NCBI GenBank assembly: GCA_021783725.1
Contig: JAJXTN010000004.1
Location: 12,178 to 76,177, forward strand
DNA: 64,000 nucleotides
From: a bacterium
Lineage (GTDB): Bacteria; Patescibacteriota; Saccharimonadia; Saccharimonadales; UBA4665
Direction of reading: 5' to 3'
Position 1 is the stretch's first letter. Each line of letters begins with the position of its first letter. The notes beneath the pieces were generated by a model, which did no database searches, was not told the origin of the DNA, and saw only the letters and a list, made by a program, of their open reading frames with translations. This document shows positions 52,195 to 63,791 of this stretch, one piece after another. Made by a program: the position numbers and the translations under genes.

Positions 52195-54615
52195 TCACAG
52201 GTCGACCCGCCGGAAGAATTGACGTTTAACAATTTCCGAGGATAGCAAATACGTTAGCGTAATAGCGACAACTGACGTCAAAGCGGTCACCGATAGTGGA
52301 CCGAACCGGAAATAGTGGCCTAGTGGCCCTAAAGCCACGAAAAAGCCTAGAGCGATCGTCCCTAGCGTACTGAACATCAAGTACGGGCTTGGCGTGCTCT
52401 GAATGAATGGAATTTTGCGCGTCCGAATAACATACACTACTAATGTTTGAGTCATCATTGATTCTAGGAACCAGCCTGACTGAAACGACGCTTCGCCATA
52501 ATGGAACACGAAAAGTAGCATAGCGAAAGTCGTGAAGTCGAAGAAAGAGCTAAGCGGGCCAAACACCCACATGGCTTTCTTGAGAGAAGCAATCTTTAGT
52601 ACCCGAGGTTGTTTGAGACGTTCGGTATCGACATTATCGAGTGGTATTGCCAGCTGTGATGTGTCGTACAGCAGATTGGTTAACAATATCTGCGTCGCTT
52701 TCATCGGTAGAAAAGGCAAGAACATCGATCCGGCGGCCATCGAGAACATATTGCCAAAATTCGAGCCTAACGACATCATCAAGTACTTGATGGTGTTGGC
52801 ATAAGTTCGACGGCCTTCGATGACGCCGTCAATCAGACTTTTGAGACTTTTGCGCAATAGAATTAAATCAGCTGTGGCTTTGGCGATATCAACAGCATTA
52901 TTAACACTTATACCGATGTCCGCGGCTTTAATCGATGGCGCATCGTTAATGCCGTCACCAAGATAGCCAACTACGTGCTTATTGGCTTGTAAGGTTTCAA
53001 TGATTCGCAATTTCTGTTCAGGATTAACTCGCGCAAACACGTTAACCGTCTCGACAGCCGCACACAACTGTTTTTCCGACATTTTTTCAATCTCATTGCC
53101 GGATAACACCCCAGCAATCTCCAAACCAATGTCTTCAGCGATTTTGCGAGTGACTAGAGCGTTGTCGCCGGTCACTATTTTGACCGCAATCCCATAATCG
53201 CGGATTCGGTCGAGGGTTACTCGAACTGATTGTTTAGCCGGATCTAGGAAAGCCATGAAACCGATAAATGTCATTTTCTGTTCGACATCAGGTTCATAGT
53301 CGTCCTTGGTTACTACGTTACGAGTCGCTACTGCCAGAACCCTAAAACCTTCGGCACTGAGCGCTTCATACTCGGCTTGGACTTTGGCTTTAACGTCACT
53401 GAATGGTTGACCGTCAGCATACTCTACACAGATACGCATGATTTCTTCTGGTGCGCCTTTAGATACCAGCAATCGTCCCGTATCATGCTTAACTACCACT
53501 GACTCACGTTTGCGCTCAAAGTCATAAGGAATCTCGTCAACCTTATGATAGCCAGTCGTATTAACGGTTTTGAAAGATTGCACAGCCTTGTCGAGCGGGT
53601 TCTCGAACCCGGTAGTGAAAATACTGGCGATATACCCGTATAGCAACACTTTGTCGGACTCACTACCAAAACCATCAACATATCGAACCAGAGTAATTTT
53701 ATCTTCGGTAAGCGTTCCGGTTTTATCGGTACACAGCACATCCATAGAGCCAAGATTCTGGATTGAAGATAAACGCTTAATGATTACGCCGTGTTTGGCC
53801 ATTGCCAGTGAACCCTTGGTGAGATTGAGCGTAATGATTAGTGGCAATAGTTCTGGCGTTAATCCAACCGCCAAAGCCACACTAAACAAGAAAGCCTCAA
53901 GCGGGTTGTGCCTAAACATAATGTTGAACAAAAAGATGAACACCACCAAAGCCACTGTGACTTTAATGATTAGGACGCTAAACTCTTTGATTTCGCGGTC
54001 AAACTCAGTTGGCTTGTCGCGGGCCGAAAGATCACGCGCTATATGTGAAAATTTTGTGGCCGAGCCAGTCTGTTTGATCAGCATCAATCCTTCACCACTA
54101 GTAATGCTTGAACCTAGGTACAGTTGCGAGTTAACCGGTTTGGGCTGGGGAAATGATTCACCGTTAAGCGCGGCTTCGTTGGCATACAAATCTTTGCCCT
54201 CGATGACTTCACCATCGGCCGGAATAAGTTTACCGGCCACCAATTTCACCACATCGCCTGGCACCAGACTGGCCAACGGCAGACTGACCCACAAGCCATC
54301 ACGCAGGACTTCAGCTTCAACCCTGACCCGCTCTTTTAACTCTTCTGCGGCGTGCTCGGACTTGTAAGAATTAACAAAATTGAGAATGGTCGACACCATA
54401 ACAATGGTAGTGATAATCACAAAACTAATAATGTCGCCCATGAAAGCCGAAAGAATGGCGGCCAGCATCAGGATAATGACTAGTGGATTGGTAAAATTAC
54501 TTAGAAAAGCCAGTATCCCAGGTAGTCGAGTAGTCTCAACTAGTGTGTTGGGGCCATATTTGTTTAGTTGTTTGGTGGCATTAGCAGTTGTTAGGCCTTG
54601 AGTGTCTGTGTTCAT
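52195..54615 (-). CDS. mgtA: magnesium-translocating P-type ATPase
   Basis: CTDKTGTLT, TGDN, GDGINDAP and the MgtA-specific LLTNLLYDTSQLAIPLDNVD. Confidence 0.88.
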   Translation of the reverse strand: MNTDTQGLTTANATKQLNKYGPNTLVETTRLPGILAFLSNFTNPLVIILMLAAILSAFMGDIISFVIITTIVMVSTILNFVNSYKSEHAAEELKERVRVEAEVLRDGLWVSLPLASLVPGDVVKLVAGKLIPADGEVIEGKDLYANEAALNGESFPQPKPVNSQLYLGSSITSGEGLMLIKQTGSATKFSHIARDLSARDKPTEFDREIKEFSVLIIKVTVALVVFIFLFNIMFRHNPLEAFLFSVALAVGLTPELLPLIITLNLTKGSLAMAKHGVIIKRLSSIQNLGSMDVLCTDKTGTLTEDKITLVRYVDGFGSESDKVLLYGYIASIFTTGFENPLDKAVQSFKTVNTTGYHKVDEIPYDFERKRESVVVKHDTGRLLVSKGAPEEIMRICVEYADGQPFSDVKAKVQAEYEALSAEGFRVLAVATRNVVTKDDYEPDVEQKMTFIGFMAFLDPAKQSVRVTLDRIRDYGIAVKIVTGDNALVTRKIAEDIGLEIAGVLSGNEIEKMSEKQLCAAVETVNVFARVNPEQKLRIIETLQANKHVVGYLGDGINDAPSIKAADIGISVNNAVDIAKATADLILLRKSLKSLIDGVIEGRRTYANTIKYLMMSLGSNFGNMFSMAAGSMFLPFLPMKATQILLTNLLYDTSQLAIPLDNVDTERLKQPRVLKIASLKKAMWVFGPLSSFFDFTTFAMLLFVFHYGEASFQSGWFLESMMTQTLVVYVIRTRKIPFIQSTPSPYLMFSTLGTIALGFFVALGPLGHYFRFGPLSVTALTSVVAITLTYLLSSEIVKRQFFRRVDL

Positions 54616-54736: not shown

Positions 54737-54784
54737 ATCCTACTCGATAATATGTAAATCCTACGAAGCTTTAGCGAAGTAGGA

Positions 54785-54877
54785 TGGCGGAGAGGGAGGG
54801 ATTTGAACCCTCGCGGGGGATTGCTCCCCCCTATCGATTTAGCAAACCGACCCCTTCAGCCACTTGGGTACCTCTCC
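54785..54877 (-). tRNA. tRNA-Ser (anticodon GCU)
   Basis: Acceptor GGAGAGG/CCTCTCC, anticodon loop TTGCTAA, a long variable arm, T loop TTCAAAT and encoded CCA. Confidence 0.9.
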
Positions 54878-54921
54878 GTATCTGTTCGAGCAACCGTGTT
54901 ATTGTAACTCGTATTTTAATC

Positions 54922-55011
54922 TGGCGGAAGGGGTGGGATTCGAACCCACGGTACCATTGCTGGCACGACGGTTTTCAAGACCGTTTCCATCGACCACTCG
55001 GACACCCTTCC
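54922..55011 (-). tRNA. tRNA-Ser (anticodon UGA)
   Basis: Acceptor GGAAGGG/CCCTTCC, anticodon arm ACGGT-CTTGAAA-ACCGT, a long variable arm and encoded CCA. Confidence 0.9.
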
Positions 55012-55124
55012 ATAACAGAGGTAATTATATCTTTTCAGGCCTTATTCTCCAAACTTAAAAATGATTAATTACAGTTTACATACTCTTACAGTAGCTCAGG
55101 CCTAGCATCCGGCCACAATTCCTT

Positions 55125-56774: not shown

Positions 56775-57203
56775 CTAAGCCGTTAAGCCAGTGTTGCTAG
56801 CTGTAGTCAACACGAAGTGAACGATGAATTGAGCTAGAGCGACAATCAATAGTCCAATGATCGCGTAGATCAAAGTATTCTTGGCGCCAGACACGTGTCC
56901 GCTGTCACCACCGGAAGTAATATATTTGAATCCGCCCCAGATAACCATAATAACGGCCACGATACCGACAATGATTGAGAACACATTAACGATCTGTGAT
57001 GCAATGTGCGCAAATGAACCATTAGCTGTTGTGGTCGTACAGCCTGAAGAACTACCCCCCGTAGCCGTATTTGTGCCTGTACATAGACTAGTGTTGATAT
57101 TGTCCGCAACTGCTACACCAGCTAGGCCAGGCACCAAGCCCGGAGCCAAGAGGGATACGCTAGCGATGAGTACGAAAATTGATTTTTTAATTTTGCCGAT
57201 CAT
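56775..57203 (-). CDS. VirB2/TrbC-type T4SS pilin-like protein, paralog 6 of 6 in transcription order
   Basis: Leader, 2 Cys, TM1, YITSGGDSGHVSGAKNTLIYAIIGLLIVALAQFIVHFVL. Confidence 0.7.
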   Translation of the reverse strand: MIGKIKKSIFVLIASVSLLAPGLVPGLAGVAVADNINTSLCTGTNTATGGSSSGCTTTTANGSFAHIASQIVNVFSIIVGIVAVIMVIWGGFKYITSGGDSGHVSGAKNTLIYAIIGLLIVALAQFIVHFVLTTASNTGLTA

Positions 57204-57264
57204 TTTTACCTTTCTTTAGTATGTTTAACTTATATCATAGCACCCCGTTACAGGGCAAGTACAC

Positions 57265-57687
57265 TTAAACACCTTGGGCCGTAGTCAGAACAAAGTGGAC
57301 AATGAACTGAGCTAGGGAAGCAATGAACAAACCAATAATCGCATAGATTAAGGCATTTTTAGCTTTAGTGATTTTGCCACTGTCACCACCGGAAGTGATA
57401 TACAAGAAACCAGCATAAACTATCATGATGACCGCTACTACACCGACAGCGTAACTAATAATCTTGACTATCGATACGATTAAACTGTCGACACCAGAAG
57501 TGCTACAGCTAGCGCCAGTCTGATTAATGCCTCCTAACACCTGGCCTTGGGCGGTTGTATTCTGAATACAAGCAGGCCCTGGCGCTGGGGTTGTTGATGG
57601 TGCGGCATAGGCCGAGCCAGCCCCGATTATAAACGGCACGAAAATCATGGCTAGTGTCACGAACATTTTGGAAAATATTTTATTCAA
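57265..57687 (-). CDS. VirB2/TrbC-type T4SS pilin-like protein, paralog 5
   Basis: Signal peptide ...GSAYAAP, 2 Cys, TM1, YITSGGDSGKITKAKNALIYAIIGLFIASLAQFIVHFVL. The track start is TTG, so the true start is uncertain. Confidence 0.7.
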   Translation of the reverse strand: MNKIFSKMFVTLAMIFVPFIIGAGSAYAAPSTTPAPGPACIQNTTAQGQVLGGINQTGASCSTSGVDSLIVSIVKIISYAVGVVAVIMIVYAGFLYITSGGDSGKITKAKNALIYAIIGLFIASLAQFIVHFVLTTAQGV

Positions 57688-57701
57688 GTCTTTTACGTCT
57701 C

Positions 57702-58076
57702 CTATAATTTACTTACTACAAAATCGATAATAAAAGTACCGGCGATGATGATGACCAGCCCAATGGCGGCGTTAAAGATGGTATTCCGAGCTTTGGCTAC
57801 GCCAGCGCTATCGCCCCCCGAAGCCACCATTTTGAAACTGCCAATCAGTATAAAGATAACAGCCGCCGCGCCAGCCACGAAAGCCAACAGATTAGTAATC
57901 TTGGCAATAATGCCGTTACTGCCCAATATTGCCGTGTCGCCCTGTTGACTACAGACCGCCGAGCTGGCAGTAGTCGTGTCGCAGACAGGTGCAAAAGGGC
58001 TCCAGGCGAATACCGGTTGGGCTTGTCCAACTATAACGACCAAGAATGCGGCTAGAAGTATAAGTTTTTTCATCAT
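57702..58076 (-). CDS. VirB2/TrbC-type T4SS pilin-like protein, paralog 4
   Basis: Signal peptide ...AQPVFAW, 2 Cys, TM1, MVASGGDSAGVAKARNTIFNAAIGLVIII. The start overlaps the stop of the upstream gene by 1 nt. Confidence 0.7.
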   Translation of the reverse strand: MMKKLILLAAFLVVIVGQAQPVFAWSPFAPVCDTTTASSAVCSQQGDTAILGSNGIIAKITNLLAFVAGAAAVIFILIGSFKMVASGGDSAGVAKARNTIFNAAIGLVIIIAGTFIIDFVVSKL

Positions 58077-58354
58077 TACAGTTTCCCCGCTACGAAAGCG
58101 ACTATGGCTTCAGCGAAGATCGCTACCGCCACTCCTACCAAAGCATAAAGTATACCCTCGCGAGCCTGGGCGGCTCTCTGAGGATCGCCATTAGAGGTTA
58201 TATATCTTAATCCGGAAAGAGTAATCATTAGTAAAGCAATCGCTCCCACCAAGCCAAAAACTACGGCTAAAACATTGGCAATAACCGAAGTTGAAGCACT
58301 AGCTTGAGGTAGGCAAGATAGATTGGCACAGCTGGCGGCAAATATTGTAATCAT
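58076..58354 (-). CDS. VirB2/TrbC-type T4SS pilin-like protein, paralog 3 (short N-terminus)
   Basis: 2 Cys, TM1, YITSNGDPQRAAQAREGILYALVGVAVAIF. Confidence 0.65.
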   Translation of the reverse strand: MITIFAASCANLSCLPQASASTSVIANVLAVVFGLVGAIALLMITLSGLRYITSNGDPQRAAQAREGILYALVGVAVAIFAEAIVAFVAGKL

Positions 58355-58355
58355 T

Positions 58356-58730
58356 TTAAGCTCCTAAAGTTGTTCCTAAGAATGTGACGACACCGATAGC
58401 TACTATAGCAATCGCCATGCCAATCAGGGCGTTAATCAATGTTTTTAGGGCTTTGGATGTCTGCTCCGGATTGCCCTGACTCGTCAAGTAGATGAAGCTA
58501 GCGTAAATAACATAAGCCACAGCCGCCATACCGGCAATTCTCAATAAATCGTCAATTAACGCCAGCAGTACCAAAGGTATATCACTACCCGAAGCGGCCG
58601 TCGGCATGATCTGAAAAGTATCCACATTACAAGTAGTTGGATTTAATTTTAGATATTGATACCACGGTATTAAACCAAAAAATGTTGGTTTACAGTTGGT
58701 GGCGGCAATAAGAGTGATGATATTAAACAT
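58356..58730 (-). CDS. VirB2/TrbC-type T4SS pilin-like protein, paralog 2
   Basis: 2 Cys, TM1, YLTSQGNPEQTSKALKTLINALIGMAIAIV. Confidence 0.65.
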   Translation of the reverse strand: MFNIITLIAATNCKPTFFGLIPWYQYLKLNPTTCNVDTFQIMPTAASGSDIPLVLLALIDDLLRIAGMAAVAYVIYASFIYLTSQGNPEQTSKALKTLINALIGMAIAIVAIGVVTFLGTTLGA

Positions 58731-59222
58731 TTAGCCTCCAGAGTTTAAAAAGCCGCCAGGGATAATGAATTGGATGAAGGCGTACAAGAAAATATATGCC
58801 ACAATCGCGATGATAGTATTACGAATCCGAGCTTTGGCGGCCGACACTTTCTGTGGATCGCCAGCCGAAGCGGTATATTGGATACCAGCCATAATTAAGG
58901 AGATGACCGCTATCAAGGCTAGCAACACCGACAATAGATTAATCGCGGGTGTTAGATATGCCTTGACCAAGTTACAGCTGTTTTGCGTACAACCAGTAGA
59001 TGCCGGGTCAGCGACCGATTTACATAAATCACTGCCAGTACAGCTAGGGCAGGTACCCGAAGTCTGGGGGTCGCAGGCTGTAGTTTTGGAAGTTGCAGTC
59101 GTGGTTGTACTGCTGGTTGTGTTTGGTGATGTGGCTGCATAGATCAAACCAGTCGATGAAGACAACGCCAGTATCACCATAATCATGCTGTTGCTGATAA
59201 ATCTTCGTATAGTTTTCATCAT
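58731..59222 (-). CDS. VirB2/TrbC-type T4SS pilin-like protein, paralog 1 (first gene of the operon)
   Basis: Signal peptide, a Thr-rich segment with 6 Cys, TM1, YTASAGDPQKVSAAKARIRNTIIAIVAYIF. Confidence 0.65.
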   Translation of the reverse strand: MMKTIRRFISNSMIMVILALSSSTGLIYAATSPNTTSSTTTTATSKTTACDPQTSGTCPSCTGSDLCKSVADPASTGCTQNSCNLVKAYLTPAINLLSVLLALIAVISLIMAGIQYTASAGDPQKVSAAKARIRNTIIAIVAYIFLYAFIQFIIPGGFLNSGG

Positions 59223-59423
59223 ATTAGACAGACCTAGTAACTTTAGTTATTAGAATTAACATAATTATAGCCGCCCAACGCCAACGATTTTCGTCCGGCC
59301 AATTTTAAACGATTTTTGTTATTTGTAATCTGTAACATTTGATTTGATTATACCCCTATAACATATTTGAGCAAATTTAATTTCTTTACGGTTTTGCTTT
59401 TAGAGATTACCATATATAGAATT

Positions 59424-62400
59424 ATGGTTGTGGGTAATAAGATAAAAATCCAACGCTACATAATTATTGCGTGCTTGCTAGTCTTTGGACTCGGCATTTT
59501 CGTGGCGTCCGTCCCACTGCCCGCCACTGCGGCCACAAACTTCAACTTCGTTGATTCTAATTTTAATCAAAGCACAATTATACCCGGCAACACTACTAGA
59601 TTTAAGTTCATTAATCCGTTCACGATTGTCGACATGGGCACACCAATCAACTGTCAAGCTAGTAACACCCCGACCAATGGCGCTAGCACTTGTGCTATTT
59701 ATTCCACTTCGGCCTCAAACTACATCGCTGACGACAAGAATGGAAGCGGTTTTTATTGGTATTGGCCGGGGGCTAACGGCGGCAGTGTTTTGGCTAGCCC
59801 TACCCATGGAGTATGTCAAGGCGCTTTAGTATTAGGTTTTAACGGCAGTACTGCCGCCACCCTTTATGCAGTACAGCCAACAACAGGTAATGGTGATACT
59901 AGTTGCATAGTTACCAATGGTAAAACCAGTCTCGATCCGACAAAAGTGACTGGACGCCAGCCATTTATAATCTCTGGTGCGGTTAGCGCTGGCAGGAACA
60001 CTTCTGGAACGAGCACAATCAACCCAGACACCATGGGAGCAATCAACAACGAAGGCGTGACCATTGGTAGCGATTGGGGTGTATTAAGGGCTATGGCGAC
60101 TTTCTTGAGCTGGAAAAGCCCTGACGAGCTTGATAGCATGTTTGGCCAAACACTAAGTCGTCTAGCGCCGTCAAAAGCTTATGACTATTTCGTCCAGCAC
60201 GCGCCAAGTCAATACACAGCCGGTTATAACCTATACACCAATACTGCCAATTTACCGGCCGGTTGTACTAAAACCGATGGTCAGACGGTTGCCGCTGTAG
60301 TGGCCGTATCTCCAAGCAATGTCACTCAAGGCACAATACTGCACTGGGATTCTGTCAAGAAAAAATACGATACTACATGGGATGGTAGCAAACAGACTTG
60401 TATCGCCGGGACCGATGGATCTAATGATATTGGCAGTAGCCCTAATATCGCCCTACCCGGTGGCAATAGTTCTGACTCTACTATCGGTTTAGCTGATGTC
60501 GCCAACTATACTGGCGCAGGCAACAGCCCAAACGCTACTGGCACTACTAGTGGTACTGCTGCCGGCTCGGGTACTGGCGCTCCCAGCCTGACTTGTAGTC
60601 CTGGAGCCAATCCGCTTGACTGGTTACTGTGTGCCGCCGTCCAAGGCATGGTCAACATCATCAACCCTTTAGCCAACCTGATATATAGCCAATTATCAGT
60701 CGGCACCTCTGGCAATACCGGCGCACCTGATCAGATATTTGGTAATGGCGCGTCGGCTAAAGATTATAAAAGTGCCTGGGATTCTTTTCGCAACATATCT
60801 CTAGCCTTAATGGTGATTGCCGCTTTGGTAGTGATCATCTCTCAAGCCGCCGGTTTTGAGATACTCGATGCTTACACTATCAGAAAAGTTTTGCCGAGAT
60901 TCCTGATCGTCGCCATATTGATCAATTTGTCTTGGCCACTAATGCAATTCTTCGTACAGCTAACTAATGATTTAGGCTACGGTATCCGCTGGTTGATTTA
61001 TAGTCCGTTCAGCGATCTAAAAGCCAGTTCGCTATCAGGTGGCGGCGACTTCGCGATAACTGTTGTAGCAGGTGGCGCCATCGTCGCGCTAGGAACTTTT
61101 GGTCTACTGAGCTTTGCAGTCACTGGCGCTCTATCCTTATTTGTGGCGTACATTACTCTAGTCTTACGACAAATACTTATCATCTTTTTGATTATTATCG
61201 CGCCGGTCGCCATCGTCGCCTACATTCTGCCCAACACCCAGAAATATTACAAAACTTGGTGGGAATCATTCAGTAAGGCCCTGCTGATGTTCCCGATCAT
61301 CGCCGGCATCATTGCCGCTGGTCATGCTTTTGCGGCAGTCGCCCTAAGCGGGCCCAACGGTGGTAGTGCCATCAATCAATTCATCGCTTTCGCCGCCTAC
61401 TTTGGACCGTACTTCATGATTCCGGCCACTTTCCGTTTCGCCGGTGCCGCTCTAGGCGCCGCCAGTGGCATGATCAACAAACAAGCTCAAGGTGGCTTCA
61501 AAGGCCTCCAAGGCTATCGCAAAAGTCGAGCCAAAGGCAACTGGGAGAAAACTCAATCTGGCAAACGCTTCAAGGGAGGCAATGACGAGAACTTCCGTGG
61601 TCGCATAAACAAAGGCCTGCAAGTTGGTTCGACGATCAATAATGCTGGGGTCGATCCTCGTCGATGGCGGTCTAGAATGCGTGAATCTATCGAACGAGAT
61701 TCTGAGCAACAACGCGACCACATGATGGAAGACAAGGATTACACTTGGAAGGGCGACGACGGACTCAACAAGGCCGCTTCGGCTTCAACCGACAGAAATG
61801 ATCTCAGGCGCCGACTTATGGCCATACCTGACCGATATACTGGTGCTAATGATCCAAACATTGACCGTGATGTTGAAAGAGTCGAGAAACTACGTGAACG
61901 ATATGACCCAGCGGCTTTCAAGCAAGCTACTTTCTTGAGTGCAGTAGCTGGTGGTACAGCCTATACCAAATCAGAAATATGGAAAGCCGCCGCTGATGTT
62001 GCCGGCGACGACAATGGTCTAATGGCAACTCTTGTGGCTAAAGGTCGTAGCGCGGCCATGAGTGCTGGTAGGGCTGACCAAGGCGGTGCCAGCTTTGGTG
62101 AAACATACGCAATTGCCGACAACTATCGAAGAGGTGCTTACGCCGACGTCGACGCCGAAGGCAGGAGCGCAACCGCCGATCTTGAGCTGGCTGGAAAAGC
62201 CCTCGATTCTCAAGGCGCTGGAGTCTTGGCCCACGCCAGCATGAAAACCAGTTCGGTTGAAAGTCTGGTGCCCGTCCTTCAACAAAGAGTTAGGGATGCG
62301 GTAGCGAGTGGTGATCAGGATGAAATTGATAGACAGCTGGCTACTGTCGCTAACCTATACGACACTATGTCAGCTTCGTCTCCCAAGAATGCCAAAGTAT

Positions 62401-62624
62401 TGGCTGATCAAGTATTGCTCTACTCAGTACCGGGTGCTCCGGGTGCAAACGGGGCGGTAACTGTCCAACAACGTGTAGAAGCAAGCAGAATCAACCCTAT
62501 GTTCCAAACTACGAGAAGAGAACTAGGGTTAGGACAATTACCGCCGGGACAAACAGGTCCTGCTGTGCCCGGAGGCCCCGGTCCTATACCAGGAGCGCCG
62601 ACTCAACCCGGTATACGTCCTTAA
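59424..62624 (+). CDS. giant polytopic membrane protein with a VirB6/TrbL-like core
   Basis: Signal/anchor, a ~430-aa ectodomain with 8 Cys, 6-7 TM segments including LVLRQILIIFLIIIAPVAIVAYILPNTQKYYKTWWESF, a ~400-aa charged C-terminal domain and a Pro/Gly tail. I prefer the ATG at 59424 to the TTG at 59367. Confidence 0.6.
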   Translation: MVVGNKIKIQRYIIIACLLVFGLGIFVASVPLPATAATNFNFVDSNFNQSTIIPGNTTRFKFINPFTIVDMGTPINCQASNTPTNGASTCAIYSTSASNYIADDKNGSGFYWYWPGANGGSVLASPTHGVCQGALVLGFNGSTAATLYAVQPTTGNGDTSCIVTNGKTSLDPTKVTGRQPFIISGAVSAGRNTSGTSTINPDTMGAINNEGVTIGSDWGVLRAMATFLSWKSPDELDSMFGQTLSRLAPSKAYDYFVQHAPSQYTAGYNLYTNTANLPAGCTKTDGQTVAAVVAVSPSNVTQGTILHWDSVKKKYDTTWDGSKQTCIAGTDGSNDIGSSPNIALPGGNSSDSTIGLADVANYTGAGNSPNATGTTSGTAAGSGTGAPSLTCSPGANPLDWLLCAAVQGMVNIINPLANLIYSQLSVGTSGNTGAPDQIFGNGASAKDYKSAWDSFRNISLALMVIAALVVIISQAAGFEILDAYTIRKVLPRFLIVAILINLSWPLMQFFVQLTNDLGYGIRWLIYSPFSDLKASSLSGGGDFAITVVAGGAIVALGTFGLLSFAVTGALSLFVAYITLVLRQILIIFLIIIAPVAIVAYILPNTQKYYKTWWESFSKALLMFPIIAGIIAAGHAFAAVALSGPNGGSAINQFIAFAAYFGPYFMIPATFRFAGAALGAASGMINKQAQGGFKGLQGYRKSRAKGNWEKTQSGKRFKGGNDENFRGRINKGLQVGSTINNAGVDPRRWRSRMRESIERDSEQQRDHMMEDKDYTWKGDDGLNKAASASTDRNDLRRRLMAIPDRYTGANDPNIDRDVERVEKLRERYDPAAFKQATFLSAVAGGTAYTKSEIWKAAADVAGDDNGLMATLVAKGRSAAMSAGRADQGGASFGETYAIADNYRRGAYADVDAEGRSATADLELAGKALDSQGAGVLAHASMKTSSVESLVPVLQQRVRDAVASGDQDEIDRQLATVANLYDTMSASSPKNAKVLADQVLLYSVPGAPGANGAVTVQQRVEASRINPMFQTTRRELGLGQLPPGQTGPAVPGGPGPIPGAPTQPGIRP

Positions 62625-62690: not shown

Positions 62691-63791
62691 ATGGCAACAT
62701 ACAAAGTACTGCAAGATATTGAGGCGGAAGACAAGATTCTGGGACCGCTGTCGTTAAGACAGTTCATTTTCGGTCTAATATCGGTCTTCCTGTTATATAT
62801 TAGTTTTCTACTGGTCGGCAAGGGCGTCGGCTTTTTGCTGATAATCACTTTGCCGCCAGCATTATTCACTGGTTTTTTCGCTTTTCCATTTGGCCGTGAT
62901 CAGCCGACCGAAATCTGGGCGCTAGCCAAAATCCGTTTCTATTTCAAGCCCCGCAAACGTCTGTGGGACCAGAGTGGCGTCAAGGAATTAGTGACGATTA
63001 CCGTCCCGAAGAAAATTGAACGGGTACTGACTAACGGTTTATCAGCCAACGAAGTCCAGAGTCGCTTGAGCGCTCTTGCTACCACCATCGACAGTCGTGG
63101 CTGGGCGGTCAAAAACGTTAACGTCAACCTGTATAGCCAGCCAGGCTTAATCGATAGCGTTGAGTCTGACCGACTGATTGACATTAACTCAATTCCTCAA
63201 GAAGTACCGAATTATGATGTTCAAGCTTCTGACGATATACTCGACGAAAACAATAATCCGATTGCGCAACAATTCCAGAGCATGATAAATGCTTCGACCC
63301 AAACGCACCGTCGGCAATTAGTCGACGAGCTGAATAATATTCGAGCCCAACAAGCTCCAACCACCGCGCCACCCAACGACTATTGGTTCATGAATCAACC
63401 GACTCCACCACCCAACCTGCCAGCCGATAAAGCGATGTTCGGTAGTGACCCGGTTGTTCAACCAGGTGCGCCGGTGGGTGACTCATCGGTCGCCCCAACA
63501 GCCGACGAGCAGGCTATTGTTGAACGGTCAAAAGCCCAACATGCCACTCAAAATCAGTCTTACGCCCATCTGCGAACCATTCAACCACTAGGTACGCCTG
63601 CGGTGGCTCAAACTCCAGCACCAACAGATTACGTTCCGGCGCCAACCACCATGACACCACCGCCAGACCCTGCTATACTATCCTTGGCAAACAACGACGA
63701 TTTGAATGTGGCTACTTTAGCCCGCGAAGCCTATAAAGCCAAGAATCCAGATAGGCCTCCCGAGGATGAAGTTGTTATTTCACTCCGCTAA
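62691..63791 (+). CDS. PrgI/VirB3-like membrane protein with a long Pro-rich C-terminal extension
   Basis: MATYKVLQDIEAEDKILGPLSLRQFIFGLISVFLLYISFLL plus a second TM gives the N-terminal signature and two-TM layout of the PrgI family. Confidence 0.6.
   Translation: MATYKVLQDIEAEDKILGPLSLRQFIFGLISVFLLYISFLLVGKGVGFLLIITLPPALFTGFFAFPFGRDQPTEIWALAKIRFYFKPRKRLWDQSGVKELVTITVPKKIERVLTNGLSANEVQSRLSALATTIDSRGWAVKNVNVNLYSQPGLIDSVESDRLIDINSIPQEVPNYDVQASDDILDENNNPIAQQFQSMINASTQTHRRQLVDELNNIRAQQAPTTAPPNDYWFMNQPTPPPNLPADKAMFGSDPVVQPGAPVGDSSVAPTADEQAIVERSKAQHATQNQSYAHLRTIQPLGTPAVAQTPAPTDYVPAPTTMTPPPDPAILSLANNDDLNVATLAREAYKAKNPDRPPEDEVVISLR

Follow-up and report, generated by a model that had tools for sequence, protein, structure and literature searches.

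A VirB6-like protein of a saccharibacterial type IV secretion system with a probably exchangeable exported domain

Homologues of VirB4, VirB6 and VirB2, together with an array of small secreted proteins, have been described in Saccharibacteria (McLean et al., 2020; PMC7427843), and VirB6 homologues near virB4 have been catalogued across Patescibacteria, whose type IV secretion systems (T4SSs) are nearest to the mating-pair formation (MPF) class MPF_FATA in a VirB4 phylogeny (Quinonero-Coronel et al., 2025; PMC12102498). The role of the saccharibacterial T4SS has been described as completely unknown, yet it is indispensable to epibiotic life (PMC11665869, PMC10633639); in Southlakia epibionticum, transposon sequencing found the T4SS locus SEML1_0006–0019 to be essential for epibiotic growth (Wang et al., 2023; PMC10633639). 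One gene of that locus, SEML1_0013 (3267 bp, ∼1088 amino acids), adjoins the pilin gene SEML1_0014, was scored as essential at the later time points and carries a structure-based annotation as TrbL/VirB6 with a C-terminal armadillo (ARM)-like repeat at residues 806–1085 (PMC10633639). Extended VirB6 proteins of 700–900 residues are typical of Gram-positive MPF_FA systems, where the role of the extra domains is unknown according to a 2025 review (PMC12857230). Here, we describe a gene at 59424–62624 (plus strand) of a 64,000-nt stretch of saccharibacterial DNA (contig JAJXTN010000004.1, assembly GCA_021783725.1), referred to below as the window; all coordinates are those of the window, L numbers denote related loci and P numbers denote database proteins. 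The product fits the SEML1_0013 group in being encoded divergently from six VirB2-like pilins, in its length of ∼1000 amino acids and in its C-terminal helical-repeat domain. It is likely to be a VirB6-family subunit of a chromosomal, monoderm-type T4SS that is conserved across Saccharibacteria, working as proposed below, with an ectodomain that is exchanged by recombination.

The program-made list of open reading frames (ORFs) contains a long plus-strand frame at 59367–62624 with a TTG start (1085 amino acids), in which the first ATG, at 59424, gives a product of 1066 residues plus stop codon. This product is identical to a database protein on NCBI/ENA contigs (P0001), and the gene is assigned as VirB6-like (TrbL_3) from its ORF, the database family annotation and a fold match. 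A first-pass annotation, made from the DNA letters alone, had read it as a single giant ORF of ∼1066 codons divergent from a pilin operon, and both points are borne out, with six PF18895 genes upstream on the minus strand. All parts of the gene listed below lie on the plus strand. Residues 1–37 (59424–59534) consist of a basic n-region and a hydrophobic stretch, as judged by hydropathy, followed by PLPATAA↓T. The segment thus looks like a cleavable signal peptide, with a predicted cleavage site after PATAA, and not like the permanent N-terminal anchor for which it had first been taken. The exported region (416 amino acids; 12% Thr, 11.6% Gly, 10.4% Ala, 10.4% Ser and 8.2% Asn) contains exactly eight cysteines, at positions 77, 90, 131, 161, 281, 326, 391 and 403, in agreement with the Thr/Gly/Asn-rich region of ∼430 residues and eight cysteines recognized earlier; the core and the C-terminal domain contain none. 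It is divided into a variable ectodomain cassette with six of the cysteines (residues 38–353; 59535–60482), a Gly/Ser/Thr-rich linker (residues 354–390; 60483–60593), in which identity to the closest relative recovers, and a conserved neck (residues 391–455; 60594–60788). The neck, which joins the variable domain to the membrane core, has a Cys391/Cys403 pair around an NPLxWxxC motif followed by an amphipathic helix, and the two cysteines, the motif and the helix are invariant in 49 family members.

The AlphaFold2 model of the protein, built on 28 sequences, is confident and all helical for residues 390–710 and 750–1035, with a predicted local distance difference test (pLDDT) score below 50 for residues 22–384; the neck helix (residues 397–424) is modeled at a pLDDT of 72–83. 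Family scans and a PDB sequence search gave no match for the ectodomain, and we leave its fold unassigned since the model is unusable there (pLDDT < 50). The hydrophobic core (residues 456–700; 60789–61523), supported by hydropathy, AlphaFold2, Foldseek and hhalign, has about seven hydrophobic helices between residues 457 and 675, modeled mostly at a pLDDT of 78–95, in line with the 6–7 transmembrane helices counted at first pass. Its conserved motifs are LDAYTIRKVLPR, APxAIVAYILPNT and WW. The C-terminal domain (residues 701–1020; 61524–62483), predicted to be cytoplasmic, is all helical in the AlphaFold2 model, has a conserved GRxDL motif and is 29% charged over its 320 residues; it is followed by a Pro/Gly-rich tail of low confidence (residues 1021–1066; 62484–62621; pLDDT < 50), so that the highly charged domain and the terminal tail quoted in the first-pass annotation are both present. 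When modeled alone (13 sequences), the C-terminal domain forms a bundle of ∼17 helices with a pLDDT of 70–87. Its best match in a Foldseek search of the PDB and a viral library had an E value of only 0.67, and its look-alikes are tetratricopeptide and armadillo repeats of low probability, consistent with the published ARM-like label. An N-terminus outside and a C-terminus inside fit the putative signal peptide, the restriction of cysteines to the exported part and, by the positive-inside rule, the basic stretch after the last hydrophobic helix, where the first 85 residues contain 19 Lys/Arg and 7 Asp/Glu. The same three features agree with the earlier proposal of a channel subunit fused to one outward-facing and one inward-facing domain.

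The ectodomain stands out in a comparison with the closest relative (P0002, locus L001). Amino-acid identity is 97% in the signal peptide, 47% in the ectodomain (residues 38–390), 94% in the neck, 96% in the core, 93% in the C-terminal domain and 65% in the tail, and the neighboring genes are 90–100% identical. At the DNA level, identity is 98–99% up to ∼59,524, falls to 40–60% with insertions and deletions up to ∼60,480 and is 99% again by 60,597. Synonymous divergence (pS) is saturated in the cassette (0.72 over residues 38–390), compared with 0.19 in the signal peptide, 0.07 in the neck and 0.07–0.51 in adjoining gene segments. This abrupt loss of identity, with saturated synonymous sites between near-identical flanks, indicates that the ectodomain has probably been replaced by a long-diverged allele through recombination rather than having evolved rapidly in place. 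Four cysteine positions are shared by the two alleles, which are therefore homologous. The composition of the cassette was also considered as a sign of foreign origin and this was rejected, its GC fraction (0.473) being close to that of the neck (0.487) and the core (0.494). A second divergent stretch covers the tail (62394–62624), with a DNA identity of 41–63% to the closest relative and a 30-column block of insertions or deletions. Synonymous divergence ranges from 0.09 to 0.85 between neighboring genes, which suggests that the locus as a whole may be a recombination mosaic.

Very fast evolution of the ectodomain under diversifying selection, without exchange of DNA between lineages, would also produce a divergent surface-exposed part, and the nonsynonymous divergence (pN) of 0.35 in the cassette compared with 0.03–0.04 in the remainder of the gene, the shared cysteines of two homologous ectodomains and the greater divergence of the exposed N-terminal part of pilin 2 relative to its membrane part are all as expected from it. 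We nevertheless consider it unlikely. The ratio of nonsynonymous to synonymous rates (dN/dS) in the cassette is 0.19, below 1; the synonymous sites are saturated there and not in the flanks; and identity jumps abruptly from 99% to ∼50% and back. Further evidence comes from one metagenome-assembled genome (MAG), OY969576.1, with two family genes (L008:9341-12193 and L010:9455-12049) whose core and C-terminus match at 98% identity over 2,073 bp and whose ectodomains cannot be aligned; all flanking DNA is unrelated as well. The L008 copy lies in a canonical T4SS locus, and the L010 copy stands alone, an orphan surrounded by genes for GNAT, MFS, fn3, DDE-transposase and ABC-transporter proteins. 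The assembly may be chimeric, its size of 1.9 Mb being large for a Saccharibacterium.

Replacement of the ectodomain by recombination also accords with a variability gradient across the family that rises from the conserved core through the less conserved C-terminal domain to the ectodomain, with its 55 unrelated sequence types among 182 proteins. Among about 190 non-redundant family proteins, BLAST joins all cores into one component, the C-terminal domains into four and the N-terminal regions into 55, of which 28 are singletons; the ectodomain type described here is found in only three of 171 family proteins. Even among pairs with 75–85% core identity, only 42% have N-terminal regions that can be aligned. 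Conservation of the two extra domains in relatives, raised as a check at first pass, is found to a moderate degree for the C-terminal domain (four groups, with GRxDL) and not for the ectodomain (55 types). The four C-terminal groups have 118, 60, 13 and 1 members, and some pairs with 75–85% core identity are unalignable in this domain too; the putatively cytoplasmic domain may therefore also exist in more than one type. No paper describing this variability was found in the literature library that was searched.

The assignment of the core to VirB6 is secure at the superfamily level when fold, profile–profile comparison, context and literature are taken together. In a Foldseek search against 350,542 PDB chains, the top five matches were all TrwI/VirB6 of R388, with the whole target covered and a probability of 0.91–0.98. 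For the profile–profile comparison, 154 family cores were aligned with hhalign to nine canonical VirB6 proteins from annotated plasmids, namely R46 TraD with three relatives (MPF_T) and pCF10 PrgH with four relatives. Against the pooled nine the probability was 84.6% (E 6.8e-6, 72 columns), and the alignment maps residues 556–628, the most conserved segment of the family, onto residues 146–217 of TraD; a canonical-versus-canonical control scored 0.2%. The core scored 56% against the MPF_T set alone and 0.4% against the PrgH-type set alone, and comparisons with single canonical sequences (TcpH, PrgH and TraD) were uninformative. The database lists PF19590 (TrbL_3) for P0001 and for 26 of 28 relatives (P0015 and P0028 being the exceptions), and weak PF04610 matches fall on the core region in nine of 15 members, the best with an E value of 2.8e-4. 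Scans of Pfam, NCBIfam and PHROGs with the whole protein and with each domain gave nothing significant, and searches of PDB sequences with the family, core and C-terminal profiles and with the ectodomain returned no VirB6 and nothing meaningful. The likeness of the central part to TrbL/VirB6 perceived in the first-pass annotation is accordingly upheld by the TrbL_3 annotation, the five TrwI matches, the hhalign result on the very segment that it quoted and the T4SS neighborhood. A profile search of the core against TrbL/VirB6, which it put forward as a check, gave no clear answer, with nothing significant in direct Pfam scans and a probability of 84.6% in an hhalign test whose positive control failed.

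That the protein is a different kind of polytopic membrane protein, such as a permease-like protein of the ABC-2 type, and merely happens to be located in a T4SS locus appears very improbable. Direct scans give it no significant Pfam TrbL match, hhalign is silent against the PrgH-type set alone and against TcpH, and the Southlakia counterpart carries KEGG K01992 and, by one method, the label 'ABC transporter permease' in the published table. These points are outweighed by the five best PDB fold matches, all to VirB6 chains, by the 85% hhalign probability against pooled canonical VirB6 on the most conserved segment, by the TrbL_3 annotation of the family in the database and by a place beside VirB3/VirB4 that is kept across dozens of genomes; published annotations based on HMMs (hidden Markov models) and on structure concur with VirB6.

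Several observations weigh against a VirB6 subunit with an exchangeable ectodomain and deserve to be set out together. Direct hmmscan searches of Pfam were not significant (PF04610 TrbL, E 0.23–1.1, 9–12 bits compared with a cut-off of 25.9) and never returned PF19590, even at E ≤ 10 on 15 and 49 members, this model seemingly being absent or filtered from the Pfam copy that was scanned. HMM searches of PDB sequences miss TrwI, and the Foldseek scores for TrwI/VirB6, obtained with a predicted model, are modest (E 0.06–0.19, target-normalized TM-score 0.30–0.43). The hhalign test is low in power, because its positive control, MPF_T against the PrgH type, gave 0.2%. Most VirB6 helices lie outside the membrane in the R388 structure (PMC12857230), so that the seven-helix transmembrane topology and the cytoplasmic C-terminus are unproven. 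The inference of recombination for this gene comes from one close relative and a few analogous pairs in the family. Finally, neither the ectodomain nor the C-terminal domain matched a known fold or family.

Diversification of the ectodomain by a diversity-generating retroelement is barely credible here. Such elements are common in Patescibacteria, and a surface protein of a candidate phyla radiation (CPR) bacterium with a hypervariable region would be a natural target. No stretch of the gene recurs as a template repeat in the 64-kb window, and the divergent stretch of ∼950 bp has many insertions and deletions and changes at all bases, unlike an adenine-specific block of ∼100 bp. Local silent cassettes were rejected along with the retroelement, as the gene has neither a repeat nor a second copy, even in part, within the window.

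The protein is an ordinary member of a large family. At E ≤ 1e-3 the core profile recovers 11,167 cluster representatives, a number that falls to 4,762 at E ≤ 1e-30. Representatives with a complete core (154) have a median length of 989 amino acids (range 514–1398), with a median of 274 residues (49–572) before the core and 404 after it, so that 1066 amino acids places the protein in the upper quartile of family length and no further. In a scan limited to one genome per species, 54 loci with core identities of 35–57% were recovered, and nearly all of them are labeled as Saccharibacteria, Saccharimonadia or Patescibacteria MAGs; most contain a single intact gene for ∼740–1230 amino acids, and a few are shorter or cut at contig ends. 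A tblastn search of 72,556 plasmids with the core gave zero matches, and a metagenome scan with the single protein as query found zero relatives. Two statements of the first-pass annotation have to be revised in this light: the architecture is not unusual, the family numbering in the thousands with a median of 989 amino acids and the same three-part layout, and the remark that extended VirB6 forms are known mainly from Rickettsiales is incomplete, since forms of 700–900 amino acids are reported as typical of Gram-positive MPF_FA systems (PMC12857230). Its concern that the gene might prove to be split in other assemblies is answered by one intact gene in most of the 54 loci. The long ORF could in principle have arisen from a frameshift, or from genes for an exported, a membrane and a cytoplasmic protein being fused during assembly, and the sole argument for this is a length unusual beside the ∼300-residue VirB6 of Gram-negative bacteria. 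Such an artefact is to all intents ruled out, because most of the 54 independent MAG loci, like 154 cluster representatives, have an unbroken ORF with the same three parts, and because the identical protein is on record at NCBI and ENA.

A few family members (P0008, and two of the 49 in one alignment) carry a Peptidase_S74 domain at their very end, beyond the C-terminal helical domain (E 1.6e-7 to 3.5e-6). Peptidase_S74 is the intramolecular chaperone of endosialidase and is typical of phage tail fibers.

The genes around the VirB6-like gene form a recurrent T4SS locus. Upstream on the minus strand (56775–59222) lie six tandem genes for VirB2-like T4SS pilins, all six with PF18895 matches (E 4e-7 to 2e-14), and the same divergent six-pilin arrangement is present in L001–L004. 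Directly downstream on the plus strand (62691–63791) is a PrgI/VirB3-like gene (PF12666 PrgI, E 2.4e-11). VirB4 falls beyond the end of the window, and the locus context was read from the contigs of P0002 and P0003. On the contig of P0002 (L001), the downstream order is PrgI, a TraC-like protein, a VirB4-like ATPase, a 902-residue protein and a lysozyme/GDSL hydrolase. Downstream genes for a VirB4-like ATPase are present in L001–L003 and five further loci, and the synteny recurs in L006, L008, L011, L035 and L039. The locus is chromosomal, with housekeeping genes (ComF-like and HSP20) at its flanks. No relaxase was found among the gene calls of L001–L004, which agrees with published descriptions (PMC12102498, PMC10633639), and a scan of the gene region for promoters and terminators gave a signal no better than chance.

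The 902-residue protein of L001 (11548–14256 of that locus, downstream of VirB4) is very large and has no Pfam match. In Southlakia, the 998-residue neighbor SEML1_0011 is labeled 'Type IV secretion system protein' with an ARM-like repeat (PMC10633639); from these two proteins, the system may have two large helical-repeat proteins. In pilin 2 (58356–58730, minus strand), the exposed N-terminal part is 78% identical to that of the closest relative, with a pS of 0.65, and identity reaches 99% over the C-terminal 75 residues; the VirB6-like ectodomain shows this pattern on a larger scale. Farther upstream, two tRNA-Ser genes with anticodons GCT and TGA lie on the minus strand at 54785–54877 and 54922–55011, and the plus-strand ORFs called at 54784–55068 were rejected as spurious translations across them. 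The translation of an 806-codon ORF at 52195–54615 (minus strand) contains DKTGTLT, a motif characteristic of P-type cation-transporting ATPases.

We propose that the core, by analogy with TrwI, oligomerizes in the cytoplasmic membrane into what is probably a pentamer, and that the oligomer would serve as the platform or channel, with pilins assembling on it and substrate passing through. After cleavage of the signal peptide, the disulfide-bonded N-terminal domain would project from the surface on its Gly/Ser/Thr linker and could act as a strain-specific module for contact with, or recognition of, the host cell envelope; alternatively, it may merely be the exposed part that is under pressure to vary. 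In the cytoplasm, the conserved C-terminal helical-repeat domain would provide a docking site for the substrate or for the ATPase module (VirB4, TraC-like and PrgI). The first-pass annotation had suggested as candidate roles an adhesin or receptor on the outside and a docking module on the inside. With the signal peptide and the neck serving as conserved flanks, homologous recombination would exchange ectodomains among lineages.

The identity of the protein as a VirB6-type subunit adds a member of an already known kind; what is new is the variability gradient and the cassette-like ectodomain, a modest addition. It does provide a domain-level handle on the T4SS: the core is invariant, the helical domain is moderately conserved, and the exported domain, of which there are dozens of unrelated types, appears to be exchanged whole between backbones that are nearly identical. 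Allele swaps of the ectodomain in a genetically tractable species are an obvious way to address host range, and the C-terminal domain is a candidate for mapping of interactions with the ATPase module. A bolder extension, which we put forward tentatively and would sooner expect to fail than to hold, is that the ectodomain determines the partner specificity of this essential T4SS, either towards the envelope of host Actinobacteria or in escape from recognition by the host or by phages, with cassettes swapped by natural transformation and recombination and orphan second alleles serving as alternatives or as a reservoir. If so, a single cassette of ∼1 kb could reveal the host range of an epibiont and serve to re-engineer it.

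Among described systems, the extended VirB6 proteins of Rickettsiales (RvhB6 and Anaplasma VirB6-4) likewise combine a VirB6 core with very large hydrophilic extensions, and their paralogues, sometimes several per genome, may be compared with the orphan L010 copy of MAG OY969576.1. They work in diderm systems of the MPF_T class, with extensions that are mainly C-terminal and repetitive, and no sequence relationship to the present protein is expected. TrwI/VirB6 of R388 (PDB entries 7O3V, 8RT9 and 8RTD) and TraD of R46/pKM101 share with the present protein a helical hydrophobic core and a gene position beside VirB3/VirB4 homologues, and the hhalign alignment covers conserved helices containing Pro and Trp. 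At ∼260–350 amino acids they lack both an exported N-terminal domain and a long C-terminal domain, they work in diderm MPF_T systems with VirB5 and VirB7–10, and direct sequence HMMs find no similarity.

PrgH of pCF10, the VirB6 of an MPF_FATA system, is also encoded directly upstream of a PrgI-family gene, but it has 266 amino acids and no extra domains, and the PrgH-type set by itself gives no hhalign signal. The MPF_FA proteins TcpH (pCW3, 832 amino acids) and ConG (ICEBs1) resemble the present protein in belonging to monoderm T4SSs, in their 700–900 residues and in having a polytopic core with hydrophilic extras (PMC12857230). TcpH differs in that hhalign with the core alignment gives 0.5% over 22 columns, in having no Pfam match itself and in serving conjugative elements with a relaxase and a coupling protein, in systems that have no pilins. 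The nearest described counterpart, SEML1_0013, comes from Ca. Southlakia epibionticum ML1 and probably has an ectodomain of another type, since only three of the 171 family members share the one described here. The correspondence is drawn from synteny, size and annotation: both genes adjoin the first pilin of a six-pilin T4SS locus and they are of nearly equal size.

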